Below are positions 9,767 to 59,908 of a stretch of 64,000 nucleotides of DNA, piece after piece (the first letter of the stretch is position 1; each line of letters begins with the position of its first letter). Origin of the DNA: Methanomicrobiaceae archaeon (GTDB lineage: Archaea; Halobacteriota; Methanomicrobia; Methanomicrobiales; Methanoculleaceae); contig JAHKLN010000011.1 in the NCBI GenBank assembly GCA_020854755.1, positions 2,131 through 66,130 of the forward strand, in the 5' to 3' direction. The notes below the pieces were generated by a model that was not told the DNA's origin, ran no database searches, and worked only from the letters and a program-made list of their open reading frames with translations. A program made the translations under genes and the position numbers.

Positions 9767-9774
9767 TTTAAATA
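9767..9774 (+). promoter_or_regulatory. TATA-box-like element (TTTAAATA) upstream of the vapB-like gene
   Basis: TTTAAATA ends 22 nt before ATG 9797. That spacing is compatible with a leaderless or near-leaderless archaeal transcript. Confidence 0.4.
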
Positions 9775-9796
9775 TTTAAACCTTACACGTAGATGC

Positions 9797-10463: not shown

Positions 10464-10719
10464 TCGGTACGCTGGCGGAGGGCATCCCTCACGCTCCGCG
10501 CGCTTGCTGCCGGCACCAGCATTCATCCGGCGAAGCTCATGCCCGGTGACCTCCCGTGCCCCGGCATCCGGGCAGGGAGGCTCCCGGGATCGAGGCACTG
10601 GCCGAAAGACTGCCTGCAGGTGTCTCCTGCTCTCTCAATCGATGCAACAGGGCGAAGCCGCAGCGGCCGGTGCCAGTGCGTGAGCCGAAAAGAAGAGGAT
10701 GGAGAGGATACCGTCCCGC

Positions 10720-24109: not shown

Positions 24110-24229
24110 GTCTTTTCACTGTCAGCACAGCTAGGTTGATCCTCCCTGTATAGAATGCTAGCGAAGTTTCAGACCCGAACAGAACGCCACTGACATACCG
24201 AAGAGGGCAGACATCACCGCTCGCCCGCG

Positions 24230-24601
24230 TTCCCATCGCCCCCCCGCTCTCCGTTTTGGCCACCGTGAAACAGGCCGTCTTTATAAATCGCGGGAAACGA
24301 ACCACGCACCGAGAGCAGATCGGGCGCAACGGCGGAGAGGCGAGGCCGGAGCCGACGTTCCAGACCCTGGTTACCCATTGCTCAAACTCGGTGTCATGGG
24401 TGACGCCCCGTTCCAGGGTGATCGGCTCGTACTTCGCCCGGCCCGGCGATTTTCGCAAGGAGGGGGGCTCCTCTTCCCGGTGGTCGGCGTGAGCGCACCG
24501 ATCTTTGGTACTCCCGCAACGTACCGGCCGTCCCGCTTCACGCGGAACTTGAAGTTCTTATAGGGATCGAACCTCTGCGGATTGACGCTGAAATCGACCA
24601 T
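24230..24601 (-). pseudogene. frameshifted, 3'-decayed copy of the eCIS tube gene
   Basis: MVDFSVNPQRFDPYKNFKFRVKRDGRYVAGVPKIGAL (ORF 24371..24601) continues in another frame as KSPGRAKYEPITLERGVTHDTEFEQWVTRVWNVGSGL (within ORF 23880..24458). Compare the intact tube at 49569..50096. The lower boundary is approximate. Confidence 0.7.
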
Positions 24602-24614
24602 ACCGACTCGCCTC

Positions 24615-25045
24615 CTATGTCTGCATCTCTCCGGCGATCTGCTGGATCTTGATGATCACGAACTCTGCGGGCTCGAGCGGTGCAAAACCGACGACGATGT
24701 TGACCATCCCCCGGATGCCGCCAAACAGGCTTTCTTCGATGAAGAGGGCCATCCTGCGCACCGGGATGTATCTGTACTCGTCGGCGAACCGGTCGCCTTC
24801 CTGCAGCGTCCGCGCGCCCAGCAGTGCTGCATCGAGGCCTGCAGGAGACTTCCAGACCCCCGGGTTGCATCCGTCCCGGCAACGATGCCGGCGATCATGC
24901 CGCAGGGCGCGAAGGTATCGAGCGGTCCACCCGGTTCGGGTCCGCCTGGATCACCCGGGGGAAGAAGAGGGCGGCATTCCGGGTCTCTTTCCCGGTCAGG
25001 CCCAGAGTCGCCAGGCCGTTCCGCGCGGACGCGGCATGCCGCCGC
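24615..25045 (-). pseudogene. 5'-truncated, internally deleted copy of the eCIS sheath gene (3' part only)
   Basis: ARNGLATLGLTGKETRNAALFFPRVIQADPNR matches sheath residues ~309-340. DNA next to the stop (24615..24617) is near-identical to 50033..50180. Antisense ORF 24582..25088 parallels 50077..51129 with two blocks missing. The upper boundary is approximate. Confidence 0.7.
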
Positions 25046-25198
25046 CCAGCACTCTTCCGGGAGGGGGCACCATCATTATCATGATTAAGGGCGACAGTAA
25101 TCGGTACATACCAATCCGTAACACTGGCGAAATATGAGAGCATATCGAACACACAAGATACTTTCGCACATCAGCGGGCTTACTGGCGGGCGGCCCAT

Positions 25199-28197: not shown

Positions 28198-30969
28198 TCA
28201 CGCATGCGTGCTGCCGTCCCTCATGCTTGCCGGCTTGCTGATCGGTACCGAGGCGCCGCGGGTCAGGTTGTCGGCAGCGATCCACTGCGGCATCCCCCTG
28301 TCGGTCGTGGCAACCGCACGGACAAGGATCCCGGTATTTGCGTTCTCTATGTGGTTCTGCCGCAGGACGATCATGGGGCCGAGGACGCCGTAGACCTTGA
28401 TCCCCACGACGTCGGCCTGCCGCAGGTTGTTCACCCGCACGATATTGCTCTCGGCGATCAGGCTCCGGCAGTTGCCGGTAAAGATGCCGTGGGCGGGGTC
28501 GGGGCAGAGCGGTGTTGCCGTGATCTCCACCGTATTGCCCGATATAATCGCCCTGTCGATGAAGTCGTGGTCGTTGCGCGGCGCATTTGCGTGGCTCACC
28601 CCCAGGTGGATGCCCTGGGTCGCCCCCCGGATTGTGTTGTAGAGGATCCGGACGTCGGGCTGCGAAGAGCCTGCGATCAGGATACCCCGGGCGGCGGACG
28701 GCGGGGCGCTCACCGCTTTATCCAGCCAGCCGGCCAGCGAGGGGAACTTCCGCCTGAGATCCTCCTCCCGGAGGACGCGGTCCACGTGTGAGAACACGAA
28801 CGTCTTCGCATCCCCCGGCCGGTCGAATGCAGGAGCGCTCGCTGCTCTCACCAGCGCCTGCAGATCCTTTTCGAGTGCAGGGGCGGTTGCGAGCCGGATG
28901 GTATGGCTGCCGATGGGGATGGCGATATACTTCCCTGCTTCCCGCACGGGCTGGTCGACGACGAGTCCCTTGAGGAGCCGTCCGACGATCTCCTTCCGGA
29001 GCCCCCGGTCCACGCGGATCGCAGCGAGGGGGTCCCTTCTGGGCTCGCCGTGCACCGCGATATCGTTCTGCTCGATCCTAACGCGGCCTGCGTTTGAAAC
29101 CAGGATGCCAATCTGCCGGTTGGCCGGAGAGAGGTCGCACCCCCGGATCCGGACCGACGCGGTGGCTCGGGCGTTCGCTCCCGGGTCGGGGTTCCATACT
29201 CCCAGGCAGGCGATGCCGTCCCGGCGCCCTGCCGCCCCCCGCACCGTCACCCGCTCGACCGTGACGCTGCCGCAGCGGTCGAAGGCGAGCACGCCGTTAA
29301 GCGTCTGCTCTCCCCCTGCCGCCCCCTCTGCTCCGGCGCTGACCATGATGTCCTCCACCACGACGCTCTCCCATCCGGAAAACACCAGCGCCGGCCGGGA
29401 AGCGGGTGCCGCAATCATCGTTCCCTTTCCGCATCCCGACAGACGGAGGTGGCCGCTGCCGGAAAAGACGATCGTATCGTCAATGCTGTATTCTGCCGCC
29501 TGGAGGCAGATCCGGGCGCTCTTTTTCCCCGTCACCCGGGACGGGCAGTTCCTGAGATCCGATGGGAGCACCACCACGGTGCAGCTCCCGTCCCGCCGCC
29601 GGCAGATGGCATCGAGAGCCTCCTGGACCGTTGTTGAGTCCTCCATCTCGCAGGCAGTCCCCGAAAAATCGACGTCTTCTGCAGAAATAGCGGTAGCGGG
29701 AGGAAACAGCCTCCGGCAGTCCTTCACGACCCCGACCGTCCCGCCCGACACACCGAGGATCGCGAGCGGGCAGTAATGGTGCTCCACCCCGTCGGGAGGC
29801 CTGAATGCGGGTTCATCGCCGGCATCGAGCGGCCACTCGATGGCATCGGTGATCGTCCGGGACGGGATCAGCCAGTAATCGCCGGGCGACAGCGCCCCCT
29901 GGCGGAAGGCCACCTGGATGCCCTCCTCGAGATCCATCCACTCCTCGCCGCCGGGCAGCGATCCGACATAATCCCAGAGGCGGACTGTCGGGTTCGTGAA
30001 CGATTCGAGGCGGATGACGGTGTCGCTGCCGGGAGGGCGTATCGTCTCCGGGTCGATGATCAGGTCTTCTCCCTCCAGGCCGATCAATCGGGCGACGACC
30101 CCGGCAATGCCCTTCCGCTCCCGGAGTTCGTCGGTGATCTCTATCCATCGTCCCCCTGCAGTCCGGCAATCCCGGAATGCGTCGAGCACGCGGGAGGGCG
30201 CGTCTTTCAGCGTGATCCTTCCATCTGGCGATGAGGCCGAGCAGCGGGCGGCAAAGGCGGCGTTATCGCGCGACCATTTGATGAGAGGCAGATGTCCGCC
30301 GGAGAACTCCTCGTGCACCTCCACCCGGTAGAGCTGGTTCTCCAGGCGGCGGTACTCCCCCGCAGTGATCTCGCACGGCCCGGCATGTGCCTGGCTGCGG
30401 TTGTATCGCGCCTTCATCATCCCCTGTACGGCCTCGCCCTCGATCGGGTCGCTGCATGATGGCTGTCCGCCGGGGGATCGCCTGGCCCGGATCTCCCAGG
30501 CCACTTCGGTGCGGGTGGCGGTATCCGGGCCGCCGAGCGCCACTTCCCGGATATTCGGGTCCTCGAGCGCCGAGACATGCCGCTCCCACACATCCAGGTA
30601 CACGAAGTGGTATCCGGTCTCGAGCGGCCAGGGAAAGGTCAGCAGGCCTCTCTCTGCCAGCGCGTCCCCGGCCGCCGGGACGATCAGATCCGCTTCGTTC
30701 TCGCAAAGTATCCCGTCCACGTAGTACCGGCCGCGGGTCACCGCGATCCCGCCGCCCTCCGTCGGCCGGATCGCGAACCCCGCGGGCGCATCCCCCTTCG
30801 GCCCCCCGTGGTGGCCGATCAGGTCTCTATCGGCAGAGCGGCGGCGATACCTCTCGATATCCGCCTGCTCGTTCCAGTCCGCATCGAGCTGCACCCTCCC
30901 CTGCTGCATGCGGACACCGGAATAGTGCTTCTCCCGCGAAAATGAATTGCGGGTAAAATCTCCATACAT
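28198..30969 (-). CDS. eCIS terminal gene: DUF6519-like N-terminus + right-handed beta-helix-like C-terminal region (candidate receptor-binding/depolymerase protein)
   Basis: ORF 28198..30987 starts at a GTG; ATG 30969 has GAGGAGG ~8 nt upstream. N-terminus MYGDFTRNSFSREKHYSGVRMQQGRVQLDADWNEQ. The C-terminal third has short repeated units (ILYNTIRGATQGIHLG, ISGNTVEI, AESNIVRVNN, LRQNHIENANTGILV). Confidence 0.7.
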   Translation of the reverse strand: MYGDFTRNSFSREKHYSGVRMQQGRVQLDADWNEQADIERYRRRSADRDLIGHHGGPKGDAPAGFAIRPTEGGGIAVTRGRYYVDGILCENEADLIVPAAGDALAERGLLTFPWPLETGYHFVYLDVWERHVSALEDPNIREVALGGPDTATRTEVAWEIRARRSPGGQPSCSDPIEGEAVQGMMKARYNRSQAHAGPCEITAGEYRRLENQLYRVEVHEEFSGGHLPLIKWSRDNAAFAARCSASSPDGRITLKDAPSRVLDAFRDCRTAGGRWIEITDELRERKGIAGVVARLIGLEGEDLIIDPETIRPPGSDTVIRLESFTNPTVRLWDYVGSLPGGEEWMDLEEGIQVAFRQGALSPGDYWLIPSRTITDAIEWPLDAGDEPAFRPPDGVEHHYCPLAILGVSGGTVGVVKDCRRLFPPATAISAEDVDFSGTACEMEDSTTVQEALDAICRRRDGSCTVVVLPSDLRNCPSRVTGKKSARICLQAAEYSIDDTIVFSGSGHLRLSGCGKGTMIAAPASRPALVFSGWESVVVEDIMVSAGAEGAAGGEQTLNGVLAFDRCGSVTVERVTVRGAAGRRDGIACLGVWNPDPGANARATASVRIRGCDLSPANRQIGILVSNAGRVRIEQNDIAVHGEPRRDPLAAIRVDRGLRKEIVGRLLKGLVVDQPVREAGKYIAIPIGSHTIRLATAPALEKDLQALVRAASAPAFDRPGDAKTFVFSHVDRVLREEDLRRKFPSLAGWLDKAVSAPPSAARGILIAGSSQPDVRILYNTIRGATQGIHLGVSHANAPRNDHDFIDRAIISGNTVEITATPLCPDPAHGIFTGNCRSLIAESNIVRVNNLRQADVVGIKVYGVLGPMIVLRQNHIENANTGILVRAVATTDRGMPQWIAADNLTRGASVPISKPASMRDGSTHA

Positions 30970-30983
30970 GCTGTCAGACCTCC

Positions 30984-33062
30984 TCACGAAACATAGAATA
31001 TCCCCGCTTCAAACCCGAATCTGATATACTCATCAATCACCCTCCGAAGGTTCGATTCCCGGTCGGCCTGGAACAGCCTGTTGAACGCACCCATCTCCGA
31101 GCCGTTCTGTGCCCCTGTCAGGATATCCGGGCTGCATGCCGCGCTCAGCTGGGCATACCCCGGACGGCCGTAGCGCCGCCGGGTGAACGCAGGCCGGCGT
31201 GCGGCCTCCAGGGCTGCGATCTGCTGTTCCGTCCGATCTCCGGCTGTTCTTGCGGCCTCGAGACTCAGGTCGGGCTGACAGCGGTACCGCCGGGGGGTTC
31301 GCGACGCTCCCGGGACATAGCTGAAGCGGATGCAGCCCGCCTGCCTCCGCTCCACGGTGACATCAATGAGGAAGATCGAATCCGACGCCTCCAGTTCCGC
31401 CACGCAGACCTGACCAAAGACCGTGCAGCGCTCCATCACGGCTTTCGGCCCCTCCCCCGACTCCCATCCGGCGACTGCGGGGTACGACCCGTCCTCCGGA
31501 GGCGCATCCAGGATGCTCTCGCTGACGGTGAGGGGGCGTGCATCTGCGGGAATCCGCAGCGGCCCGCAGATGCTCCGGTGTATCGTCACCCCCGGGCGAT
31601 CGGACGCATCCGATGTCTGGAGGCTGTTTGCGCGCGGATAGCGGGGGCTGCCGTCCTGGTTGAGCGACCACCCGGGCACCAGGGTGGTGTGCGTGATCCG
31701 GATATCGGGCGATCCCGCAATCTGCAGCCCGCCCTCCACCAGGAACCCGTCCAGGGAGAAGGAGGATCCCTCCGCTCCCCGGATGACGTTGTTCCCGACA
31801 GGCCGCCAGGTCGGCCGGCAGCCCTCGCCCGCCTCGATCGTCACCGCGGTCTCCGGCGGCAGATCGATATCGAAATTCCCTCCGTAGACGCCGTTATCCT
31901 CGACCCGGATGACGAGCACGCGCCTGCCTTCGGACTCACCGATATCCAGGCATCGGTCCCTCGCCTCCTGCAGGGTCGTGCACGCCCCGTTCTTTGAGAC
32001 CCGGATCACGCATGCATCGGGATCGGCTGCACGCTGCCGGGGATACGGTCCGCCCCCCATATCCGCAGAGAAGCCGTAGCAGTACGAGACCTCCACCTGC
32101 GCCGGCGACCCGCCGTCGGGGAAGGCAAGCCGTCCTCGCTCCGGGTCGATCGCCACCTTCCCGGGCCCGGGCCGCTCCCACGCACTCAGGTCGGCCACGA
32201 CGATTGCCGAGGCGGGAACAAGCCTGCCGTCACGGTAGACGGCAAGGGCGCAGCCCTCCCCGTACAGCCGGGAGCGTCCGGGCCACCCGGTATCGGGCCG
32301 TGAGTCCGAGCGGGCCATAAACTCCCTGAGATCGTCCTCCAGCGCTCCCGGACGGATTGCGCCTGGCACATGCTCCTCACCGGAGATCCGGGAGATATCC
32401 TCCTCCGTGGACGGGAGGGAGAAGAGGGGGAGATCGGTACCGAGCGTGCTGAAGTGGTACAGCCCCCGGGAACCGCGGGCAGGAGCGCGGAGCATCTGGT
32501 AGGGCGTCAGCCGCCAGAGGAAGATGCCGATATGGGGGATGTTGAACCTGCCCCTGCCGCTCCCGATCCGGCGCACCTCGGCCGTGTGCGCCAGACGGCT
32601 AAACGGCGTCCCCAGGAGATCGAGGGCGTTTCGATCCCGCAGATCCGCCGTGCCGCCGCCGTCGCGTACGTGGGCGAGGTGCTGCGTCCTCGCCAGTGCC
32701 TGGAAGAACTCAACGGCATGGGCGGGCCACCGGGTGATGTCGCGGGCCAGCTGCTCCAGCACGGCCGCCGTCCCCTTCCTGCGGCGATAGGCGATGCTGT
32801 TGGCGACGTATGCCCGAAGGCTGCTCCCCTCTCCCGGGGTGAGCAGGCCGGCGCCGAGGGCGTCCCCGATGTAGGGCACCGCCCACTCCGCACAGGTCTC
32901 GATGAAGAGATCGTCGTACAGCTGATCCAGGTTCTCCTCCAGTGCCCGCACCTCATCCGCAATCACCCCGAGCAGCTGCAAAAGCGGCTCCCCGCGTTCG
33001 CCGTCGCGTATGCGGTAGATGGCGGGCAGCAGGGAATAGAGGGTCTCATCATCGAAGTTCAT
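30984..33062 (-). CDS. phage P2 gpI-like tail/baseplate protein
   Basis: N-terminus LYSLLPAIYRIRDGERGEPLLQLLGVIADEVRALEENLDQLYDDLFIETCAEWAVPYIGDALG. ATGA overlap with the upstream gene. Confidence 0.8.
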   Translation of the reverse strand: MNFDDETLYSLLPAIYRIRDGERGEPLLQLLGVIADEVRALEENLDQLYDDLFIETCAEWAVPYIGDALGAGLLTPGEGSSLRAYVANSIAYRRRKGTAAVLEQLARDITRWPAHAVEFFQALARTQHLAHVRDGGGTADLRDRNALDLLGTPFSRLAHTAEVRRIGSGRGRFNIPHIGIFLWRLTPYQMLRAPARGSRGLYHFSTLGTDLPLFSLPSTEEDISRISGEEHVPGAIRPGALEDDLREFMARSDSRPDTGWPGRSRLYGEGCALAVYRDGRLVPASAIVVADLSAWERPGPGKVAIDPERGRLAFPDGGSPAQVEVSYCYGFSADMGGGPYPRQRAADPDACVIRVSKNGACTTLQEARDRCLDIGESEGRRVLVIRVEDNGVYGGNFDIDLPPETAVTIEAGEGCRPTWRPVGNNVIRGAEGSSFSLDGFLVEGGLQIAGSPDIRITHTTLVPGWSLNQDGSPRYPRANSLQTSDASDRPGVTIHRSICGPLRIPADARPLTVSESILDAPPEDGSYPAVAGWESGEGPKAVMERCTVFGQVCVAELEASDSIFLIDVTVERRQAGCIRFSYVPGASRTPRRYRCQPDLSLEAARTAGDRTEQQIAALEAARRPAFTRRRYGRPGYAQLSAACSPDILTGAQNGSEMGAFNRLFQADRESNLRRVIDEYIRFGFEAGIFYVS

Positions 33063-41064: not shown

Positions 41065-41715
41065 CTAGAGGATCCTGCTCATACCCGCCGCATCAAGGCC
41101 GGTGGGAATGCCTATTCTGGCCATGGTCTCCTTGCCGATCTGGTGGGCGATGAAGAGGGCGTGCCCCGGATGCGACGGCATGAGATCGTTGTAGCTCAGC
41201 ACCCGGAGGCCGAGGGTTACCCTGGCCCGGATCGGGTTGAGATGTACGTCGTGCGCCTCTTCGGTCACCCTGAACTCGGTCACCTGAACGGGGAGGATGC
41301 GCATGGGCCCGTAGATGAAGAGGGTGAAGGCAGCCGGCGGGGGCACGACCTCGATGATCCCCATCTCCATGAGGGCAATGTTTGCAAGCACCCTGCTGCT
41401 CTGCGGATAGAGGAGCACCTCGAGCGCCGCGAGCTGGGGGTGGATGCCCATGCCGGTCGCGAGGACGTCAGCCTTTTCCAGCTGATCCGTGGCGTCGATC
41501 TCCAGCTCGAGGCTGATCGTCTCGACCGGCGCCCCCTTCAACCGGAGGGCCGACGTCCGTTCCCCGCCCTCTCCTCCGGCCGTCTGCGCCTGCAGCGTCC
41601 GCGTGAGCGTATCGGGGTTATACTGAAAGACTATCACGCTGGGTGTGGGGCTGGGCAGATCGAAGGACACAAGCGCCCCTTTGAGAAGCCTTGGGGAACC
41701 GGGAAATGTCGTCAC
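41065..41715 (-). CDS. conserved tail protein with tube-adaptor/initiator-like N-terminus (Afp5/Afp7 class, tentative)
   Basis: GTG start with GGGG ~10 nt upstream. LLKGALVSFDL...VIVFQYNPDTLTRTL. First gene after a ~300-bp gap. Confidence 0.7.
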   Translation of the reverse strand: MTTFPGSPRLLKGALVSFDLPSPTPSVIVFQYNPDTLTRTLQAQTAGGEGGERTSALRLKGAPVETISLELEIDATDQLEKADVLATGMGIHPQLAALEVLLYPQSSRVLANIALMEMGIIEVVPPPAAFTLFIYGPMRILPVQVTEFRVTEEAHDVHLNPIRARVTLGLRVLSYNDLMPSHPGHALFIAHQIGKETMARIGIPTGLDAAGMSRIL

Positions 41716-42012
41716 TACATATAACCCCTTTGTATATCAGTAAAGAAGGTGCATCAGGAATAAAGGTTTTTGGTTGATTGTTTCTGCTTCCTGTGGAATC
41801 TTCGCGTCTCTGCATCGTCTGTTGTCAGTCGATGCATGATCCGGTGCTTCTCCGGGCGGGATCTTCACCGGTCTCCCTGCAGCCTCCGGCCTCGTGAGCC
41901 GCTCCATGCAGGCGGTCGATCCTGCCGGGGGAAGAGGGTGAGCCGATCCTTTATGGACCGGCAGGCAGGCCTCCCGGCAGAGGAACGCCTGCATCACCGT
42001 GCACCGGAGAGG

Positions 42013-42939
42013 CTACTGCTCTTCGTAATAGCCTCCCGATCCGGCCTTTGGTACCGAACTGCGGCTGGCGGGCGAGCTCGGGATGACATTCCCCGCCCCG
42101 TCAAGCACCCTGAGTTGACCGGCGTCCAGGCGTCTCTGGCAGCACAGGTCGCAGTCCGATCCGCCGCAGGCGCGCCCCTCTGCATTGTTATGCAGATCCA
42201 TCTTATTCTCATTGGCAGGCCCGTCGCCATGGCGTTCGTGGCCGGTGGCGATGGTCTCTGCCTGGTCGGCGCCAATTTCAGCCGTCATCGTGCAGTTCCA
42301 GTAACAATGCCGCCAGGCGTCTGCGGGCCCGTTATGCAGCCCCGGCAGTCCCGTCGCTCTGGCTCGTACCAGGGCGCGATCGGCAAGCCGGCTTGCCTTG
42401 TAGGCATCCCAGGGGCCGACTCCCAGGACAGCGCTCCACATCTCGCCCAGACCGGCGCGGGCGATCTGCAGCCCGGAGGGCGTCACCCTGGGGGGCTCCA
42501 CCCGCCCGTGCAGCACCTGTCTGGCTGCGGCGATGGCCTCACGTTCGTACAGGTCTCCTTCCTGGCCGCCACTGCCGGCGCTCTGCTGCATCGCGTGGGT
42601 CAACTCATGGGCGAGTAGTTGTCGCCCTTCGCCTGTTTCCGGGGCGTACTGCCCGGTCCCGAAGACCAGGTCCCGTCCCACCGTGTACGCCTTCGCATTC
42701 ACCGCTCGCGCCGACTCCGCGGCTTTTGCGCCAGTATGCACCCGCACCCGGGCAAAATCGTGGTTGAATCCCGATTCCATGAACTCCCGCGTCCTCCGGT
42801 CCAGCGGCTGCCCGGGCGAGCGCAGCACCTCGTGCACGATCGGCGGGATATGGCCGGCATCGCGGCGCTGCAGGATGCCGGCCCGGGAGGGCGTGATAGA
42901 GGATGCCGCCGCCGCAGCCTGGTGGTGTTTCATGGTCAT
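42013..42939 (-). CDS. DUF4157 (HExxH zincin-like) protein with unknown Cys/His-rich C-terminal domain; candidate eCIS payload
   Basis: PIVHEVLRSPGQPLDRRTREFMESGFNHDFARVRVHTGAKAAESARAVNAKAYTVGRDLVF...LLAHELTHAMQQ. The C-terminal part has ADAWRHCYWNC, HERHGDG, MDLHNNAEGR and CGGSDCDLCC. Confidence 0.85.
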   Translation of the reverse strand: MTMKHHQAAAAASSITPSRAGILQRRDAGHIPPIVHEVLRSPGQPLDRRTREFMESGFNHDFARVRVHTGAKAAESARAVNAKAYTVGRDLVFGTGQYAPETGEGRQLLAHELTHAMQQSAGSGGQEGDLYEREAIAAARQVLHGRVEPPRVTPSGLQIARAGLGEMWSAVLGVGPWDAYKASRLADRALVRARATGLPGLHNGPADAWRHCYWNCTMTAEIGADQAETIATGHERHGDGPANENKMDLHNNAEGRACGGSDCDLCCQRRLDAGQLRVLDGAGNVIPSSPASRSSVPKAGSGGYYEEQ

Positions 42940-42947
42940 TGAGAACC

Positions 42948-44327
42948 TCAGCGTGCGTACCTGCTGTTGATCATCCTGCGCAGTCCTCGCTCGCCGCCCA
43001 GCCGGAACGTGGGATCTTGCTCGTAGAGGAACCGGAAGATGCGTTCCCGTGCACGCTGCTCGACCTGCTGGTTTAACAGCGCCGTGCGCTTCTGGAGTTC
43101 GGGTCCCCAGCTGTCAATAGGCTGGTAGAGTAGGACTTCCGGTGCCATGCGGCGATACTGGTCGCGAAACTCCGTGCGCCGCAGAAACTCAATCTCCATC
43201 TGAATGGCCCGCCGAACGCTCTGTTCGGACGGCGTCAGCTCGCGGCGAATGGCGCGGCGCAGGTGCTCGAAGGCGGTGCAGCTGATCCCGAAACACGTCC
43301 GCTCTTCTCTGGGCCGTCTGTCTTCCGGTGCCGCACTGATGGTTGCTTGCGGGCGCTGCCGCCGGGGCGCCGGCAATGGCGTGGGGGCAGGCTTCGGGGT
43401 GGGCGCCGGTGGCGGTGCCATGCGGTGGGCGACGACGCTGCGGCGGTCCGCACGCGCGCCGGGCGTTGCACCGTGCTTGAAGATGCCGGCGATCCGGGCC
43501 GGAAAGACACTCGCGTTCTCCAGCACGCTTCTCGCTCTGAGCGCCCGCAGGCAGGAGAGATGTTCGTTGAAATCGGCCGGCCCGTCTTCGCTTGCAAACC
43601 CGTGAATCGTCACGGAGTCGCCGGGCTGAAGCCGACCGGCAAAACTGCGCAGCCGTGCTTCTTCGCCGGCGAGAAAATCGTCGCAGTTCACGGCGAACCG
43701 GAAGAGCTCCTCGCTGCTTGTACCGACGTCGGTGATGTCGCCGCACATGCCCTCACAGCCCGCGACGGGGCGCATGCCGGATGGCCTGTAGCATGCCCGC
43801 TGGAGCGGCGCCGGGGCATTGCCGCACCGCCCGGCACTGGAGCGGCCATCGGCCGACCCCGACGCGATCTGATCGGCCTCGTGCTCGTACCGGCTCTCGC
43901 ACGGCTCTATCCTGAGGTCTCCTGGCGTGCGTACGCCGCCCTGCTGCACCACGTGAGCCAGTTCGTGCATCAGCAGCGCTCTTCCTTCCGCCATATCCGG
44001 CGCAAATCGGCCGGCGTCAAAGACGATGTCGCGGCCGACCGTATACGCCAGCGCGTTGACCGCCCGCGCCGATTCCGCCGCCTTTGCATCCGCGTGCACC
44101 CGCACCCGGGAAAAGTCGTGGCCGAACCGGGGCTCCATATCGGCGCGGGTGGCCGGGTCGAGAGGCCGCCCCGTGGAGCGCAGCACTTCATGCACGATCG
44201 GCGGCGCCATCTCCTGCGTGGACCTCAGAGCCGAACGCTGCAGGGCCGGCATCTTTTGAGAACAATCGCATATCCGCTGCAGGACTCCGCCGGCCTGTTC
44301 TGCCTGAGCAGCAGCCATCTGTCTCAT
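42948..44327 (-). CDS. DUF4157 (HExxH zincin-like) protein with OmpA-C-like domain and basic helical tail; candidate eCIS payload
   Basis: PIVHEVLRSTGRPLDPATRADMEPRFGHDFSRVRVHADAKAAESARAVNALAYTVGRDIVF...LLMHELAHVVQQ. The middle region VTIHGFASEDGPADFNEHLSCLRALRARSVL is OmpA/MotB-like. A PAPTPKPAPTPLPAP linker follows. Confidence 0.85.
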   Translation of the reverse strand: MRQMAAAQAEQAGGVLQRICDCSQKMPALQRSALRSTQEMAPPIVHEVLRSTGRPLDPATRADMEPRFGHDFSRVRVHADAKAAESARAVNALAYTVGRDIVFDAGRFAPDMAEGRALLMHELAHVVQQGGVRTPGDLRIEPCESRYEHEADQIASGSADGRSSAGRCGNAPAPLQRACYRPSGMRPVAGCEGMCGDITDVGTSSEELFRFAVNCDDFLAGEEARLRSFAGRLQPGDSVTIHGFASEDGPADFNEHLSCLRALRARSVLENASVFPARIAGIFKHGATPGARADRRSVVAHRMAPPPAPTPKPAPTPLPAPRRQRPQATISAAPEDRRPREERTCFGISCTAFEHLRRAIRRELTPSEQSVRRAIQMEIEFLRRTEFRDQYRRMAPEVLLYQPIDSWGPELQKRTALLNQQVEQRARERIFRFLYEQDPTFRLGGERGLRRMINSRYAR

Positions 44328-44581
44328 CTCCCTATCCCTCCGTATACTGCCTGTGCGATTCGGGTGCCGAGATTGCAGGGGTCGTTTCCGCCCTCCAGCC
44401 GGATCGTCCCCCCGGGCACGCGTGGCCGTGCGCCCCCCGGGGCGAGATCGGCGGAGAGCCCGCCGGCGGCCAGCATCCGCGCCAGCTTGCCCTCCACCGC
44501 CGCCTGCAGGAGCGGGCGCTCGCTGTAAGGGATATCGATCCCGTCCAGCACCAGGCGCTCGATATGTACCGTGATCTTCAT
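44324..44581 (-). CDS. small conserved eCIS-associated protein (85 aa)
   Basis: Start at ATG 44581 (MKITVHIERLVLDGIDIPY...). ATGA overlaps on both sides, with the ATPase stop and the DUF4157 start. Confidence 0.6.
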   Translation of the reverse strand: MKITVHIERLVLDGIDIPYSERPLLQAAVEGKLARMLAAGGLSADLAPGGARPRVPGGTIRLEGGNDPCNLGTRIAQAVYGGIGR

Positions 44582-46629
44582 GCGTCTCCTCCTTTCTTCG
44601 CCGCCTCCGTCCACCGGAAGTCGGCCTCGTTGATCGGGCGCTCCATCTTCCGGAACTCGGCCCTTGCCGCCTGAAGCACGAGCGGCATGGTCACCGGGGT
44701 GCCTGCCTCTGCCGCAAGGAAGGCGGCGTTGAGGGCGGTGTTGTGGATGCTCCCACCGGTCAGGTTCAGCCGGGCCAGCCGGTCGATCTCCAGCCCCTCG
44801 GTCTCTGTCTCGGGTGGAAAGACCCTCTCCCAGATGCGCCTGCGTTCGGGCTGCCCCGGGAAGGGGAAGGCGACGATGAACCTGAGCCTGCGGAGGAAGG
44901 CGGGGTCGAGCGATGACTTCATGTTCGTCGCCAGGATCGCAAGCCCCCTATACGCCTCGATCCGCTGCAGCAGGTAGTTGATCTCGATATTCGCATAGCG
45001 GTCGTGGCTGTCCTTCACCTCGCTGCGTTTGCCGAAGAGGGCATCGGCTTCGTCGAAGAAGAGGATCGCCCCTCCGTCCTCCGCCGCGTCGAAGAGCCGC
45101 CGCAGGTTCTTCTCCGTCTCACCGATATACTTGTTGACCACGGCGGAGAGGTCAATGCGGTACAGATCAAGGCCGAGATCGTTGGCGATCACCTCTGCGG
45201 CCATGGTCTTGCCGGTACCGCTCTCCCCTGCAAAGAGTGCGCTGATCCCGAGCCCGCGGTTCATCCGGTGCCGAAATCCCCACTCGTCGTAGACAGTGCT
45301 TCGCCGCCTCACCTGGTCGGCGATCCGGCGGAGCAGTGACTGTTGCTCCTCGGGAAGGACGAGATCCTCCCATCGGGCCTTCGGATCGATCCGCCGTGCA
45401 AGCTGCTCTATCCCCGGCCGGGTTCTCTCCAGGCATGCCGACCACAGCCCGTCATGGAGGCCGGTATCGCCGTCGTCCGCCCCGTCGAGCACCGGGCCTG
45501 CGATCTGCCGGATCGCCTGAAGGTTCAGGTTGAACTGGCCGGCGAGGAGTGCCGGGCTCTCTTTGCCCCTCTCTCCGAGCGCCGCAGCCCACGCAGCCTT
45601 CTGTTCGGCCGGTGTCGGTCGCTCGATGTCCAGGATCAGGGTGGTGCGATCGAGATCCGGCCTGACCTCCCGGGTGTCGATCAGGGCAGGGCCTCCGTAC
45701 AGCAGGAGAAAACGTTCGAGCGTAGCGTTCTGTGCCTCGCCGGCCGTTCCCGGTTCACCCTCCAGGCCGGCGTCGAGGTAGAGTGCTATCGGCACAAGCA
45801 GGCTCTCGCGCTGCCAGAGACGGGCCAGCATATCGAGGTCGGCCGCCTGGGAAGGCAGCAATGCAACGGGGATACGGGTGATCCGGATGCCGGCGCTCAA
45901 TACGGCGTGGTGCGTCACGGCCTGCTTGCTCACCGTATCAGGACCGACGAGCTGGACAAGAGTCGGCCTTCCGGAATCGCCCTCCCCCTGCAGATGCCGT
46001 CGAATGCGTTCGGCTGCGGCGAACTGGCTCGGGGAGAGCGCTTCCGGTTCGGCGTATGCCGTATCGAACGGGACGGTGAACGGGATCAGCCGGTTGTCGA
46101 GCCTGTTATGCCCCTTGATGAAATGCACAACCCGCTCGTCGGCCTGCAGGGCGCTGGCGGTCAGGGGAAGGGCCGCCTGCTGGTGGCATTCGATCAGGCG
46201 GTAGTAGCGCAGCGGGCGTTCCGGCAGGAGCGCATCCCAGGAACGATCCTCAAACAACGCGAGCGCCAGGGCAAACGTCGGGTAGGGCCTTCCGGGGTCG
46301 TCCTGCGCCCGGGCGCAGAGCCCGGAAATCCTGGTATCGAGCTCCATGGCGGCGCAGAGCAGGAGCACCTCCTGCTCGAACCGGGAGAGCCCGAACTGCC
46401 GGGCAAGGAGGGTCAGCGCCGGAGAAGGAAGCGCCGCTTCGGCGGCGGCCATGGCTTCCGCGGCACGGGCGATTGCTTCGCCCGAAGGGAGGCGCCCTTC
46501 GGGCGATCCCCCTGCCTGCGGTTCGTCCGGGCCGCCGGCTGCGAACCGCTGCAGGAGGAGGCGAAGCCAGGCTAATGCCGCGGCGAGGTACTCCTCGTTG
46601 TTCTCTTCCCACTCTTCGTATGGACTCAT
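44578..46629 (-). CDS. AAA+ ATPase (Afp15-like)
   Basis: Walker A GESGTGKTMAAE, Walker B ILFFDEADALF, sensor LAILATN, and a ~400-aa non-ATPase N-terminal region. Confidence 0.95.
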   Translation of the reverse strand: MSPYEEWEENNEEYLAAALAWLRLLLQRFAAGGPDEPQAGGSPEGRLPSGEAIARAAEAMAAAEAALPSPALTLLARQFGLSRFEQEVLLLCAAMELDTRISGLCARAQDDPGRPYPTFALALALFEDRSWDALLPERPLRYYRLIECHQQAALPLTASALQADERVVHFIKGHNRLDNRLIPFTVPFDTAYAEPEALSPSQFAAAERIRRHLQGEGDSGRPTLVQLVGPDTVSKQAVTHHAVLSAGIRITRIPVALLPSQAADLDMLARLWQRESLLVPIALYLDAGLEGEPGTAGEAQNATLERFLLLYGGPALIDTREVRPDLDRTTLILDIERPTPAEQKAAWAAALGERGKESPALLAGQFNLNLQAIRQIAGPVLDGADDGDTGLHDGLWSACLERTRPGIEQLARRIDPKARWEDLVLPEEQQSLLRRIADQVRRRSTVYDEWGFRHRMNRGLGISALFAGESGTGKTMAAEVIANDLGLDLYRIDLSAVVNKYIGETEKNLRRLFDAAEDGGAILFFDEADALFGKRSEVKDSHDRYANIEINYLLQRIEAYRGLAILATNMKSSLDPAFLRRLRFIVAFPFPGQPERRRIWERVFPPETETEGLEIDRLARLNLTGGSIHNTALNAAFLAAEAGTPVTMPLVLQAARAEFRKMERPINEADFRWTEAAKKGGDA

Positions 46630-54700: not shown

Positions 54701-54736
54701 CCTATTAGATCCTACAGGTATTCACCGTTGATTTAT

Positions 54737-56494
54737 ATGCACCTTATAGAACAACCGGGGGGATCGGCCCGCGTCGAGCTGCAAAAGAGCCCGACCGGGA
54801 TTCAGGGCCTGGATGAGATCACGCTCGGCGGCCTGCCGAGAGGGCGCACGACGCTTGTGGTCGGCAAGGCGGGATCCGGCAAGACCCTGCTCGGGATGGA
54901 GTTTTTAGTCCGCGGCGCGCTGGAGTTCGGGGAACCCGGCGTCTTCTTCTCGTTTGAGGAGACGGCCGGGGATCTCACCCAGAATGTCGCATCCCTCGGC
55001 TATGACCTGAACGATCTCCGGGAGAGAAACCTGCTCTCGATCGATCATGTGGAGGTATCCCGGAGCGATATCGTCGAGACGGGGGAGTACGATCTCGAGG
55101 CGCTCTTCATCCGGCTCGGCTACGCCATCGACTCCGTCGGCGCACAAAGGGTCGTCCTGGATACCATCGAGTCGCTCTTCTCCGGCTTTGCGGATACCGC
55201 CATCCTCCGCGCCGAACTCCGGCGGCTCTTCTTCTGGCTGAAGGAGAGAGGCGTCACCGCCGTCGTCACCGGGGAGAGCGGTGAGGCGACCATGACCCGC
55301 CATGGCCTGGAGGAGTACATCTCCGACTGCGTGATCCTCCTGGATCACCGGGTCGACGAGCAGATCTCCACCCGCCGCCTCCGGGTGGTGAAGTACCGCG
55401 GGTCGGTCCATGGCACCAACGAATATCCCTTCTTAATCGACGAGAACGGGATCTCCGTGCTGCCGATCACCTCCGCCGGGCTGACGCATACCGTCAGCCG
55501 GGACCGCATCTCAAGCGGCGTCGATCGCCTCGACGCCATGCTTGAAGGAGAGGGGTTCTACCGCGGCAGCACGATCATGATTGCCGGGACGCCCGGCACC
55601 GGCAAGACCAGTTTCGGGGCGAGTTTCGGGGACGCTGCCTGCCTCCGGGGCGAGAAATGCCTCTACTTCGCCTTTGAGGAGTCGCCGGACCAGATCGTCC
55701 GGAACATGCAGTCCATCGGGATCGATCTGGCGCCCCATATCACCGCCGGCCTGCTTGAGATTCACGCCTCCCGGCCGACCATGTACGGCCTGGAGATGCA
55801 CCTTGTCCTGATGCTCAAGCAGATCCAGGAGCGGCAGCCCGATGTGGTGGTGATCGATCCCCTGACCGATCTTATCTCAATCGGTACGTCCAGAGACGTC
55901 AAGGTCATGCTCACGCGGCTCGTTGACTTCCTGAAGACGGACGGGATCACCGTGCTCTTCACCTACCTTGCCCACACGCGGGAGGCGGTAGCCCCCTCGG
56001 ACTTTGTCGTCTCCTCGCTCATCGATACCCTGATCCAGCTGCAGGATATCGAGTCTGCCGGCGAACGCAACCGCGGGCTGTACGTGCTGAAATCGCGGGG
56101 CATGGGGCATTCCAACCAGATCCGCGAGTACCGGATCACCGATGGCGGCATCGAACTCGCCAACATCTACGCCGGGCCCGCCGGGATGTTCTTTGGCACC
56201 TCCCGGTTCGTGCAGGAGGCGAAGGAGGAGGCAGAGCGCGAAGCGCGGGAGGAGGAGATCGCATACCAGCAGCGCGAGCTCGAGCGGAAGCGGAGCGTCA
56301 TGGAGGCCCGGATCGCCGCCCTGCGCAACGAGTTCGCCTCGCACGAGGAGCAAGTCCGGAGGCTGATCAAGGCGGAGGGCGCCCGGCAGGATGCGGTGAA
56401 AGCAGACACCCGGGCAATCCGGAAACTGCGAAAGGCCGATGAACCCGGGGAGAGCATGATCCGATCAACCGGAAGTACCGGGGAGGAGCAATGA
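54737..56494 (+). CDS. kaiC: KaiC-family double RecA-domain ATPase with charged coiled-coil C-terminal extension
   Basis: ATG 54737; the track start 54728 is a [19 protein letters not shown], Walker A GKAGSGKT (domain 1) and GTPGTGKT (domain 2). The tail is [26 protein letters not shown]... Confidence 0.9.
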
Positions 56495-58615: not shown

Positions 58616-59908
58616 ATGAAACGCATATCACCGACGATTTTTGTCCTGGCAGTGATCCTCGCGCTCGGCTGCATCGTTGCGGGGTGCGCCGATATGCAGG
58701 GAGCGATATCAGCGAGATCTGCCGGGGAGGAGACGCTGGATGATCAGTCGGCGGACGCTATCGATAGCGTGGCTGCGGGGAACAACCGGTTCGCCTGCGA
58801 TCTGTACCGCAATCTGGCCGACGATCCGAAATACGCGGAAACCAACCTCTTCTTCTCGCCCTACAGCATCTCATCGGCTCTTGCGATCACCTACGAGGGC
58901 GCCCGCGGCACGACTGCCGACGAGATCCGATCGGTGCTCCACCTGCCGGAGAACGATACCCTGCGGCGGGAAGGGTTCTCCGGGATCAACGCCCGGATGA
59001 ACAGCGTGGATGCCGCCTGCACCCTCCGGACGGCGAACGCACTCTGGGCGGAGGAGACGTATCAGTTCCTGCCGGAGTATATCGAGACGGCAGAGCGCTA
59101 TTACGGCGCGAACGCAACAAACATCGACTTCATCAACGCTCCCGAGGAGTCGCGCAGCACCATCAACCGCTGGGTGGAGGAGCGGACCGAAGAGAAGATC
59201 CGGGATCTGCTGCCGCCCGGCTCGATCGACCCGGTGACAAGGCTGGTGATCACAAACGCCATATACTTCGAGGGGACGTGGGTGAAGCAGTTCGATGAGA
59301 ATCTCACACGGGACGATGATTTCCGGGTTGCACCGGAAAGGGCCGTGCGTGTCCCGATGATGCAGCGGACCGGCGAAGATGCCGTCTTTAACTATACGGA
59401 GACCGGGACCGTCCAGGTGCTCGGGATGCCGTATGCGCACGAGAGCGGACGGCAACTCTCGATGCTCGTCATCCTTCCGAACGACGAAAACCTGACGGCC
59501 GCCGAAGCGGCTCTTGATCCGGAGCAGATCGGGGAGCTCCGGCAGTCGCTGGTCTCGCAGCGCGTGGACGTCTTCTTCCCGAAATTCACGCTCGAGACGG
59601 AGTACTCCCTTCCGGAGACGCTTGCGGCGATGGGGATGCCGACGGCGTTTTCCGGGGCGGCCGATCTCTCGGGTATGGACGGCACGAGAGACCTCTTCAT
59701 CAGCGATGTCATCCACAAGGCGTTTGTCGACGTGGACGAGGAGGGCACCGAGGCCGCGGCCGCGACCGCGGTTGTCGTCCGCCTGGTATCTGCGCCCCAG
59801 AACAATGATATTCCCGTCTTCAGGGCGGATCACCCCTTCGTCTTCCTCATTCTCGATGACGATACCGGAAACATCCTCTTCATAGGAAGGGTGGCGAACC
59901 CGGCGTGA
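58616..59908 (+). CDS. serpin-family protease inhibitor with signal/lipobox-like N-terminus
   Basis: LALGCIVAGC. NLFFSPYSISSALAITYEGARGTTADEI. Hinge and reactive-centre region DVDEEGTEAAAATAVVVRLVSAP...FRADHPFVFLI. Confidence 0.9.
   Translation: MKRISPTIFVLAVILALGCIVAGCADMQGAISARSAGEETLDDQSADAIDSVAAGNNRFACDLYRNLADDPKYAETNLFFSPYSISSALAITYEGARGTTADEIRSVLHLPENDTLRREGFSGINARMNSVDAACTLRTANALWAEETYQFLPEYIETAERYYGANATNIDFINAPEESRSTINRWVEERTEEKIRDLLPPGSIDPVTRLVITNAIYFEGTWVKQFDENLTRDDDFRVAPERAVRVPMMQRTGEDAVFNYTETGTVQVLGMPYAHESGRQLSMLVILPNDENLTAAEAALDPEQIGELRQSLVSQRVDVFFPKFTLETEYSLPETLAAMGMPTAFSGAADLSGMDGTRDLFISDVIHKAFVDVDEEGTEAAAATAVVVRLVSAPQNNDIPVFRADHPFVFLILDDDTGNILFIGRVANPA

Follow-up and report, generated by a model that had tools for sequence, protein, structure and literature searches.

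Two adjacent genes of a methanogenic archaeon, whose products share an N-terminal block and differ in their C-terminal parts, probably encode the cargo, or effectors, that a phage-tail-like contractile injection system (CIS) of the Methanomicrobiales injects. In the window (the whole stretch of 64,000 nucleotides that was analysed), both genes lie on the reverse strand. Protein A, of 459 aa, is encoded at 42948-44327 and is made up of a leader, a DUF4157 domain, an OmpA/Pal-like domain, a proline linker and an orphan helical C-terminal domain. Protein B, of 308 aa, is encoded at 42013-42939 and consists of a short disordered leader, DUF4157, a helical linker and a DUF6973 domain that resembles the toxin BteO. 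Together, these two ORFs match exactly the segment 42013-44327 to which an earlier note on this DNA had drawn attention. Sequence comparison shows which domains are present, that their genes keep a conserved place in the operon, that modules are swapped and that B is homologous to BteO, whereas the loading, the injection, the type of target and the activity of the two candidate effectors are inferred.

Gene order and the cargo position

The genes for A and B are surrounded by CIS genes of the same strand, namely those for the sheath, gp19 tube, Pvc16_N, AAA, CIS_tube, spike, PAAR-like, gp25, Baseplate_J and DUF6519 fibre proteins. Directly upstream of the cargo genes is an AAA+ ATPase with an N-terminal winged-helix domain (44578-46629, reverse strand; Pfam AAA 3.5e-26, WHD 6.3e-23). 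It is of the Pvc15/Afp15/Alg15 type, shares 50% identity with the ATPase of another Methanomicrobiaceae locus and, by analogy with the PVC and AlgoCIS literature, is presumed to be the cargo loader. A conserved 85-aa protein (44324-44581, reverse strand) is encoded ahead of the cargo genes. No match to it was found in Pfam or NCBIfam; it is 55% identical to an 85-aa gene product at the same position in another locus (L003), and a homolog was detected in 19 of the 34 related loci. The stop of this gene overlaps the start of A (ATGA), which confirms the translational coupling noticed earlier on the upstream side, and 8 nt separate the stop of A from the ATG of B. The NCBI annotation of the locus begins both proteins further downstream, which leaves A with 420 aa and B with 306 aa. 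For A, homology favours the longer version, since its residues 15-31 match the leader motif found across the family (LQRKCxC...LQR).

On the downstream side, an intergenic gap of 297 bp (41716-42012, reverse strand) leads from B to the CIS_tube gene. It contains no credible ORF or known RNA, and the NCBI annotation of the locus places no gene there. Since the GC content falls within the gap towards the CIS_tube gene, it may harbour an internal promoter. The CIS_tube-type protein (41065-41715, reverse strand; Pfam CIS_tube 0.0015) is encoded by the first gene of the baseplate-proximal module and forms the downstream limit of the cargo position; related loci have a homolog at the same position. 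Thus, the gene order confirms that A and B lie between the ATPase/small-protein genes and the baseplate module.

The gene order was compared across 34 related loci, which come from archaea and from numerous phyla of bacteria. There, it runs sheath, tube, T4_baseplate-like, a gene marked x, Pvc16_N, AAA, the 85-aa gene, one to five DUF4157 genes, CIS_tube, a 99-aa gene, gpD-like, spike and gp25. DUF4157 genes occupy this position in 30 of the 34 loci, and exactly two of them are present in eight. The mid-operon placement is therefore not unusual but the standard cargo position of the lineage. Further, the variable copy number and the variable C-termini argue for cargo rather than for structural parts.

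The shared N-terminal block

The common block of about 95 aa described by the earlier note was recovered by BLASTP, which aligns residues 42-138 of A with 32-130 of B (66/99 identities, 67%; E 1e-37). No significant alignment between the two proteins was found outside this block, in agreement with the claim that their C-terminal parts are unrelated. The DNA that encodes the block shows 70% identity over 271 nt, so it does not stem from a recent duplication. Its assignment to DUF4157 holds as well: against Pfam PF13699 (DUF4157, now eCIS_core), both proteins reach 108.6 bits, far above the curated gathering cut-off of 22 bits (A, residues 55-131, E 1.7e-31; B, residues 45-122, E 1.8e-31). The zincin-like domain spans residues 42-135 of A (43923-44204, reverse strand) and 32-125 of B (42565-42846, reverse strand; pLDDT >90). 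The HExxH motif is intact in both (H121-E122-L-A-H125 in A, H111-E112-L-T-H115 in B) and is invariant across 44 homologs of A and 48 of B. In the homologs of A, the invariant residues are H78, H121, E122, H125, Q128 and Q129.

Protein B and the BteO family

Protein B begins with a leader (residues 1-31; 42847-42939, reverse strand), which carries a GILQRR motif and is predicted to be disordered. In the AF2 model, residues 1-28 have a pLDDT below 50, the remainder is confident and the mean pLDDT is 83.9. The C-terminal domain had been described as Cys/His-rich; it does contain 6 Cys and 5 His, and it corresponds to Pfam DUF6973. The domain covers residues 165-292 (42064-42447, reverse strand), of which residues 176-259 score 69.9 bits on PF22322, with a cut-off of 27. 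A fragment of BteO scores 49.8 bits on the same model.

BteO is a GA3 T6SS effector of Bacteroides fragilis, which binds the C-terminal domains of OmpA proteins and attacks the outer-membrane anchors of bacteria (PMC12541434; PDB 9UU0). The replacement of its R143, H144, H167, E168, D187 and D191 by alanine abolishes toxicity and markedly reduces OmpA9 binding, and its immunity protein BtiO, an OmpA-C-like mimic, neutralises it (PMC12541434). The six toxicity residues align with R210, H211, H234, E235, E244 and D248 of B, so that, apart from a single change of Asp to Glu, they are common to both proteins. Among 48 homologs of B, each of these positions is invariant or at least 90% conserved; N251 and N252 belong to the same conserved set, as do C216, C258, C263 and C266.

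In a Foldseek search with the model of B, the top PDB match, and the only one of high probability, was 9uu0_A (MBP-BteO; probability 1.0, E 8e-3, 217 columns, rmsd 11 A). The TM score of 0.32 is normalised on the full-length query, and the models compared include DUF4157 (in B) and MBP (in 9uu0_A). The DUF6973 family profile of B matches 9uu0_A with an E of 0.0042. With a modest fold match and a profile E of about 0.004, the relationship rests on several weak-to-moderate independent signals taken together. From these signals, the C-terminal domain of B is judged to be homologous to BteO and to belong to its family. This link between DUF6973 and BteO is absent from the searchable literature and gives a clue to the function of hundreds of DUF4157-DUF6973 proteins.

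The two proteins also differ in several respects. Unlike B, BteO has an N-terminal transmembrane helix, lacks DUF4157, is delivered by a T6SS and has the immunity protein BtiO. The identity is about 19-25% in the aligned core, and the four conserved Cys of the eCIS-type DUF6973 are absent in BteO, so the mode of action may differ. Moreover, the invariant R-H / H-E / D / N-N arrangement resembles a catalytic or metal site; the mechanism of a 'non-enzymatic binder' may thus not transfer to B.

Protein A and the exchange of C-terminal modules

The leader of A (residues 1-41; 44205-44327, reverse strand) carries the motif of its family (GVLQRICDC...ALQRS) and aligns with the consensus GxLQRKCACG..C..C..K..LQR of 44 homologs. 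By analogy with the NTD of the AlgoCIS cargo, we infer that it is a candidate loading signal.

OmpA-C/Pal domains bind the diaminopimelate of peptidoglycan through a canonical pair of Asp and Arg. Residues 176-298 of A (43434-43802, reverse strand) form an OmpA-C/Pal-like domain, with four conserved Cys added. Protein A alone scores 23.8 bits against Pfam OmpA (PF00691), under the gathering cut-off of 27.2, while some of its homologs exceed it (e.g. P0243, at 44.3 bits). The profile of 44 homologs, however, matches Pal (2hqs, 1.6e-8), YfiB (1.7e-8) and the C-domain of B. fragilis OmpA9 (9uu2, 4.5e-7) over the whole domain. It is therefore by its family profile that the domain is OmpA-like. The NxxLSxxRA motif of Pal/OmpA-C domains (PDB 2HQS, 5EB1) is found in A, with its canonical Arg kept as the invariant R261, but the Asp of GHTD is replaced by an invariant Ser (S246), which makes peptidoglycan binding uncertain. 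The settings differ as well, in that Pal/OmpA-C domains are found in envelope proteins and the domain of A stands behind DUF4157 in a protein predicted to be injected.

The linker PPPAPTPKPAPTPLPAP (residues 299-325; 43353-43433, reverse strand) contains 10 Pro in 27 aa, and the homology of A to other DUF4157-OmpA-like proteins stops there. It is followed by a rare C-terminal domain (residues 326-459; 42951-43352, reverse strand), which is modelled by AF2 as helical (pLDDT 83.9), is basic (pI 10.6) and carries the motifs C.GISC.AF, FLRRT, AR.R.F and a terminal NSxYAR. The succession of OmpA-like domain, linker and basic tail is as the earlier note had described it. Among 1.84 billion proteins, the last domain has only 13 representatives (E<=1e-3), and it is C-terminal in all of them. 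In two relatives, a nuclease-like insert lies ahead of it, so the toxic part may be another. The HMM and structure searches proposed for the C-terminal modules thus identified that of B as a BteO-like DUF6973, and for residues 326-459 of A they gave no Pfam match and no significant fold match in PDB or BFVD.

Homologs of A with both DUF4157 and the OmpA-like domain were observed to end in various modules, including Ntox44, PLA2-like, M35, Tlde1, AMOP and DUF6973; Ntox16 and YkuD follow DUF4157 in matches where the OmpA-like domain was not detected. A second Methanomicrobiaceae MAG has, in the corresponding place, a gene whose product shares 44% identity with A as far as residue 299, beyond which the C-terminus is different. 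Going by these alignments, DUF4157 with the OmpA-like domain is a conserved carrier behind which many toxin modules are exchanged. The proposal of a constant N-terminus with variable effector modules is thus supported as far as swapping is concerned and needs correction for A, whose OmpA-like domain belongs to the carrier and whose variable part is the last ~135 aa only.

Comparison with known systems

DUF4157 is known to occur at the N-terminus of eCIS toxins, validated ones among them (Geller 2021, PMC8213781). In AlgoCIS, the adjacent DUF4157 proteins Cgo1 and Cgo2, each with a disordered NTD and a differing CTD, fill the lumen of the tube, and their deletion empties it (Xu 2022, PMC8894135). 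Like A and B, they are encoded by neighbouring genes in a cluster with an AAA+ ATPase and combine a leader and DUF4157 with differing C-termini. Their C-terminal domains, however, are unrelated to those found here, the host is a Bacteroidota bacterium and not an archaeon, and the leader of B (about 31 aa) is very short compared with AlgoCIS. Moreover, loading and toxicity were demonstrated experimentally for AlgoCIS, whereas for A and B they are deduced from the genes.

Another system close to the present one is the CIS/T6SS of Halogeometricum borinquense, which also has an archaeal host and DUF4157 genes in the middle of the cluster (the 'interspacing region'). Five of its DUF4157 proteins are secreted in a sheath-dependent manner and some are toxic (Sci Adv 2024, PMC11566945). 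For the toxic ones, immunity partners are encoded downstream, and the target is another haloarchaeon (PMC11566945). In contrast, the locus described here belongs to a methanogen and has no evident immunity gene, and its C-terminal domains relate to bacterial envelope proteins.

A constant N-terminus associated with trafficking, joined to exchangeable toxin modules, is also the plan of polymorphic toxins and of the EATs with an N-terminal DUF4157 (PMC8213781; Danov 2024, PMC11297309). These EAT studies stress the 3' ends of operons, whereas A and B, like their whole lineage, are placed mid-operon; the toxins that they tested include neither DUF6973 nor the C-terminal domain of A. The arrangement as such, with DUF4157 cargo genes in tandem and exchanged C-termini, is already established. 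The view of such proteins as candidate eCIS payloads, put forward for A and B in the earlier note, finds support in these reports (PMC8213781, PMC8894135, PMC11566945) and in the comparative data.

Proposed mechanism and its alternatives

In the proposed mechanism, the neighbouring AAA+ ATPase would help in recognising the short, presumably disordered leader that stands before DUF4157 in each protein, and the proteins would be packed inside the inner tube's lumen, as in AlgoCIS and PVC. On contraction of the sheath, A and B would be expelled into the target, where the activity would reside in their C-terminal parts. For the DUF6973 domain of B, the prediction is that it binds OmpA-C-like domains in the proteins that tether the outer membrane to peptidoglycan, which would weaken a diderm envelope. 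Protein A would bring the Pal/OmpA-like domain of a widely reused carrier along with its rare helical C-terminal domain.

DUF4157 could also act as an active zinc metalloprotease, either cleaving the cargo itself to release the C-terminal module or serving as a toxin in the target. The invariance of HExxH, the upstream His and the QQ pair in 44-48 homologs suggests a catalytic or metal-binding role, and for both domains the model or the match is of high confidence. Nevertheless, point mutations in the HExxH of Cgo1 do not reduce toxicity (PMC8894135), and in AlgoCIS the disordered leader is required for loading, whereas the deletion of DUF4157 leaves it intact (bioRxiv 10.64898/2026.05.27.728243), which for AlgoCIS goes part of the way to answering whether DUF4157 serves as a packaging signal, as the earlier note had asked. 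There is also no known third zinc ligand or substrate, and no solved structure was matched to DUF4157 by sequence; this role is therefore regarded as unlikely. That DUF4157 proteins are structural or assembly components, such as a lumen plug or an assembly scaffold, and not delivered effectors appears improbable. Such a role would suit the Pfam name 'eCIS core domain', the classification of DUF4157 as a core domain in 13 phyla (Geller 2021, PMC8213781), the near-universal presence of the genes in this lineage (30 of 34 loci) and their constant place between the ATPase and tube-initiator genes. It fits poorly with hypervariable C-termini that include many toxin domains and with one to five copies per locus, unlike structural genes. 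Further, orphan DUF4157-DUF6973 genes lie far from any CIS genes (L004, L086), and AlgoCIS particles assemble without Cgo1 and Cgo2 (PMC8894135).

A and B could, instead, form a pair, in which B's BteO-like domain is bound by the OmpA-like domain of A, much as BtiO neutralises BteO, and is kept inert or chaperoned until delivery. BteO does bind OmpA-C-like domains, BtiO mimics one of them, and the domain family of A matches the BteO-bound domain of OmpA9. Single proteins combining DUF4157, OmpA-like and DUF6973 domains exist (e.g. P0026 and P0057), and OmpA-like domains occur in only 7 of the 162 DUF4157 ORFs of the sampled loci, so their adjacency to DUF6973 here is not expected by chance. 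However, none of the five other DUF4157-DUF6973 genes with readable context (L002, L003, L004, L085, L086) has an OmpA-like neighbour, the fusion of the carrier to many unrelated toxin modules marks it as a general module, and two-hybrid tests show no interaction between Cgo1 and Cgo2 (PMC8894135). An archaeal producer would also need no protection from an OmpA-targeting effector. Such pairing is considered very improbable. It is also hardly probable that the CIS acts inside or on its producer, in regulated cell death or differentiation, with A and B as self-directed effectors. CIS of a related type in Streptomyces are reported to act intracellularly (PMC11126660), so that A and B need not be delivered to other cells, and no methanogen CIS has a known target. 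Against a self-directed role, the tail-fibre gene (28198-30987), with its eBAP5/DUF6519 baseplate-attachment domain and a beta-helix, argues for the binding of external targets, and the domains found in A and B are related to components of the bacterial envelope, which the archaeon does not have. The reading of A and B as injected cargo is, therefore, preferred.

Host and possible targets

It is established that the Methanomicrobiales possess neither murein nor OmpA, and a producer of this kind would need no immunity protein. The archaeal host and the lack of an evident immunity gene at the A/B locus suggest bacterial targets, and the homology of B to BteO predicts these to be OmpA-family proteins of diderm bacteria. 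A bolder extension of the cargo reading, which we put forward with considerable doubt, is that the methanogen uses its horizontally acquired CIS on diderm bacteria. In that case, B would bind OmpA C-domains, and the OmpA/Pal-like domain of A would compete for the tether sites or restrain B until delivery. If so, this would be a cross-domain, envelope-directed antagonism by a methanogen, and the targeted bacteria could include its syntrophic or competing partners. The mechanism of BteO, described as unique to a Bacteroides T6SS, would then be a widespread cargo module of eCIS in bacteria and archaea. DUF4157 with the OmpA-like domain, as a reusable carrier of envelope-directed toxins, may aid the prediction of effectors and help to engineer eCIS cargo. 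The haloarchaeal study explicitly leaves methanogen CIS as an open area (PMC11566945), for which this locus provides concrete cargo candidates along with a specific target prediction.

As regards the host, the exact protein B is deposited as coming from a Methanomicrobiaceae MAG, and the same junctions are found in a second assembly. The flanking aldolase has matches of 85-92% identity, whose named sources are all Methanomicrobiales. The CIS island itself is GC-rich and was probably acquired horizontally.

The tandem DUF4157 proteins and their operon

Two adjoining ORFs on the minus strand, A (42948-44327, 459 aa) and B (42013-42939, 308 aa), both score 108.6 bits on Pfam PF13699 (DUF4157, now named the 'eCIS core domain'; cut-off 22), and the HExxH motif is retained in each. 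This confirms the earlier note, which had placed two tandem DUF4157 HExxH proteins at 42013-44327 and had described only their N-terminal block as shared. BLASTP indeed aligns this block alone (67% identity over 99 residues, E 1e-37), and the C-termini differ. At the DNA level, the block is merely 70% identical over 271 nt; because of this, a recent tandem duplication was ruled out, and the two genes are judged to be old paralogues or separately acquired cassettes. Their DUF4157 domains are mutually no closer than either is to homologs in other genomes.

The upstream translational coupling claimed for the pair is also present, as the stop of an 85-aa gene (44324-44581, minus strand) overlaps the ATG of A in the sequence ATGA. 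The stop of A and the ATG of B are 8 nt apart, and B is followed at its 3' side by a 297-bp gap with no Rfam match. The sole ORF in this gap (86 aa, GTG start) is uncalled in the NCBI annotation of the same locus (L001). A search of NCBIfam with A, B and the 85-aa protein added nothing. In the NCBI annotation, Met40 is taken as the start of A (420 aa) and Met3 as that of B (306 aa). With Met40 as its start, A loses the conserved LQR...C..C...LQR leader, probably its loading signal. Cargo proteins of this type may, therefore, have their leaders concealed by automated start calls.

A complete contractile-injection-system (CIS) operon surrounds A and B on the minus strand, from ~52.2 kb down to 28.2 kb. 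It begins with the sheath, a gp19-type tube, a T4_baseplate-like protein, a proline-rich protein of 354 aa, a Pvc16_N cap protein and an AAA+ ATPase with a winged-helix domain. The 85-aa protein (44324-44581) and the A and B pair (42013-44327) come next. Further downstream lie a CIS_tube protein, proteins of 99 and 379 aa, a Phage_base_V spike, a PAAR/DUF4280-like protein, gp25, two Baseplate_J proteins, a 692-aa protein and, lastly, a tail fibre with DUF6519 (eBAP5) and a beta-helix. The GC content of the operon (~28200-52250) is 64-69% (~61% towards its sheath end), whereas the archaeal genes around it have 54-61%; this higher GC suggests a horizontally acquired island. Related loci sharing the CIS gene order are mostly bacterial. 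The host belongs to the Methanomicrobiales. Pfam domains of the flanking genes did not decide its taxonomy, but an aldolase gene in the flank (1094-1918) did, as it finds matches of 85-92% identity whose named sources are all Methanomicrobiales. An identical protein B is deposited as 'Methanomicrobiaceae archaeon', and GCA_028715245.1 holds the same locus with the same neighbours.

About 3 kb past the fibre end of the operon, at 23883-25170 (minus strand), frameshifted fragments match the C-terminus of the locus's own sheath in three frames (i-E down to 1e-12) and its own gp19-type tube protein in two (i-E 5e-21 and 1e-18). The stretch resembles a second pair of sheath and tube genes in decay, and its neighbours are a PLD-like gene and a MASE3/PAS histidine kinase. 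Unrelated to A and B, the archaeal flank carries a full-length serpin (58616-59908, plus strand; Pfam E 1e-117) and a double-domain KaiC-like ATPase (54728-56494, plus strand), both with PAS histidine kinases alongside.

The probable cargo position across related loci

For comparison, 80 loci were fetched from species-representative genomes with the B alignment as query, and their six-frame ORFs were scanned with profiles and with the CIS proteins of the window itself. This contig scan was meant for DUF6973 loci and mostly matched the DUF4157 pattern; the 80 loci thus form a general DUF4157 sample, which serves gene order and not DUF6973 statistics. The order AAA, 85-aa gene, DUF4157 genes, CIS_tube, 99-aa gene, gpD-like, spike and gp25 recurs in Verrucomicrobiota, Chloroflexota, Acidobacteriota, Planctomycetota, Proteobacteria and Abditibacteriales. 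In a second Methanomicrobiaceae MAG, the part from AAA to CIS_tube is present before the contig ends, and a Methanoregula MAG and Methanosarcina sp. DH2 hold arrays of DUF4157 genes in which no CIS markers were detected. One to five DUF4157 ORFs lie between the ATPase and CIS_tube genes in 30 of the 34 loci holding both (exactly two in 8/34). Locus L003 is a gene-for-gene copy of the arrangement in the window, with a DUF4157-DUF6973 gene directly after its 85-aa gene. The mid-operon location given in the earlier note is, therefore, the rule in this lineage and no oddity.

The conserved 85-aa protein (MKITVHIERLVLDG...GGIGR), whose gene always separates that of the AAA+ ATPase from the first DUF4157 gene, was detected in 19/34 related loci. 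The L003 copy (9747-10004 of that locus) is 55% identical to that of the window. The protein has no match in Pfam or NCBIfam; a role as loading adaptor or as a component of the tube lumen is conceivable.

The DUF4157 domain is known as an eCIS marker, N-terminal in many validated toxins or adjacent to them (PMC8213781). In AlgoCIS, the tube lumen is filled by two adjacent DUF4157 proteins, Cgo1 and Cgo2, both of which have a disordered NTD ahead of DUF4157 and a CTD of their own; mutation of their HExxH does not remove toxicity (PMC8894135). Halogeometricum borinquense releases five DUF4157 proteins in a manner that depends on the sheath; two of the five are toxic, plus a further DUF4157 protein encoded mid-cluster, and each toxic one has a downstream immunity partner (PMC11566945). 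The same work names methanogen CIS as unexplored (PMC11566945). The arrangement of A and B is thus supported as tandem DUF4157 eCIS cargo of a kind already known.

Protein B and the toxin BteO

A sequence search with B retrieved 4093 proteins at E<=1e-3. Among the best 120 of these, most have both DUF4157 and DUF6973, and dozens share 40-65% identity over 80-98% of B. Some DUF4157-DUF6973 proteins carry a C-terminal Hint domain; in P0135, P0137, P0146 and other homologs of B, this Hint/intein-like domain runs to the very C-terminus (...VHNKNI), which suggests a Hedgehog-type self-cleavage that would free the DUF4157-DUF6973 part.

The model of B (AF2, 48 homologs) has a mean pLDDT of 83.9, with residues 1-28 disordered. 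A PDB sequence search with the single B sequence gave nothing at E<=1. Foldseek against the PDB gave a single meaningful match, 9uu0_A (probability 1.0, E 8e-3), though with a modest fold score. In this entry, MBP is fused to BteO, a type VI secretion effector of B. fragilis, from residue 83 of the latter to its end. The family profile of B reaches the same entry at E 0.0042, with the motifs (D/N)A(W/F)RH..W, HE and (M/I)DL.NN.GR aligned. Since the aligned BteO fragment (74 residues) scores 49.8 bits on Pfam DUF6973 (cut-off 27), BteO is itself, by profile, a DUF6973 protein. This link is an addition of the present analysis; no mention of DUF6973 was found in the literature searched, and eCIS, Pfam and archaea are absent from the BteO paper (PMC12541434).

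BteO is toxic only in the periplasm; it attaches to several OmpA proteins by way of their OmpA-C-like domains, and BtiO, a mimic of this fold, neutralises it (PMC12541434). The substitutions R143A, H144A, H167A, E168A, D187A or D191A abolish its toxicity and markedly reduce binding of OmpA9 (PMC12541434). Once the fusion offset of 296 is taken into account, their aligned counterparts in B are R210, H211, H234, E235, E244 and D248, all of which are invariant or at least 90% conserved among the 48 homologs. The invariant polar residues of DUF6973 (R-H/H-E/D/N-N) could equally form a catalytic or metal site. Unlike BteO, the eCIS-type DUF6973 domains have four extra conserved Cys.

Protein A as a carrier with exchangeable ends

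Homologs of A align over ~60-65% of the protein, which comprises the leader, DUF4157 and an OmpA-like domain, and diverge past the proline-rich linker. Their divergent C-termini include Ntox44, PLA2-like, Aspzincin M35, Tlde1, AMOP and DUF6973; Ntox16 and YkuD stand behind DUF4157 in matches where no OmpA-like domain was detected. At L010, a second Methanomicrobiaceae locus, the gene that directly follows the 85-aa gene shares 44% identity with A across residues 29-299 of A and differs beyond them, which demonstrates module swapping directly. The proposal of a constant N-terminal part with swapped C-terminal modules as candidate payloads holds well with this, and the recognition of the DUF4157-OmpA-like carrier extends it.

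A PDB sequence search with the single A sequence gave nothing at E<=1, and A alone scores 23.8 bits on Pfam OmpA, below the cut-off of 27.2. The profile of its OmpA-like family, in turn, matches Pal (1.6e-8), YfiB (1.7e-8) and the C-domain of B. fragilis OmpA9 (4.5e-7), so that the assignment is firm at the profile level. In this domain, R261, the Arg of the LSxxRA motif, is invariant, an invariant Ser246 takes the canonical Asp position, and four Cys are conserved. With the canonical Arg kept and the Asp replaced, peptidoglycan binding appears plausible but not assured.

The last ~135 residues of A form a rare domain, with 13 representatives among 1.84 billion proteins (exhaustive HMMER, query 300-459). 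It is always C-terminal and ends in NSxYAR, and 8/13 members have an OmpA domain. AF2 predicts it as helical (pLDDT 83.9). Residues 300-459 have no Pfam match, and Foldseek with this domain found nothing below E=2.7 in the PDB or BFVD. Thus, the HMM and structure searches that the earlier note had proposed for the C-terminal modules identified that of B as DUF6973/BteO-like and gave no significant match for that of A in Pfam, the PDB or BFVD. In P0243 and P0246, an extra segment of ~200 aa lies between the OmpA-like domain and the A-type domain, with a weak match to DNA/RNA non-specific endonuclease (one alignment member, E 7.7e-4). In view of this nuclease-like insert, the A-type domain may not itself be the toxin but an accessory module.

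Possible modes of action

Since OmpA-C-like domains are bound by BteO and imitated by its immunity protein, it is suggestive that the OmpA-like A and the BteO-like B lie next to each other, and one may ask whether the two cargos work as a pair. Single-chain fusions of DUF4157, OmpA-like and DUF6973 do exist, and OmpA-like domains are rare among the sampled DUF4157 ORFs (7/162; DUF6973 is absent from that sample). Yet, around five other DUF6973 genes, no neighbour is OmpA-like; moreover, the OmpA-like carrier occurs in fusions with many unrelated modules. A concerted action of A and B is, therefore, improbable.

The domain identities, the order of the genes and the swapping of modules are observed; for loading, delivery, target and activity, we infer two cargos of one particle. 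A and B would be loaded into the tube via their leaders, aided by the ATPase, and expelled upon sheath contraction. The predicted binding partners of B are OmpA-type tether proteins of diderm bacteria; A would deliver its helical module, which the OmpA-like domain might hold at the cell wall. This offers a concrete hypothesis, that of a methanogen targeting bacteria with a CIS. The envelopes of Methanomicrobiales have neither an OmpA-type tether nor such a cell wall. No immunity gene is evident at the A/B locus, which fits an archaeal producer devoid of both targets.

A different cargo placement is seen in L085, a fermentation metagenome contig. At 5900-11400, three DUF4157 genes, one of them with DUF6973, lie downstream of the baseplate/fibre genes and not mid-operon. 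They are interleaved with small ORFs of 160 aa and 59 aa, which could be immunity genes.
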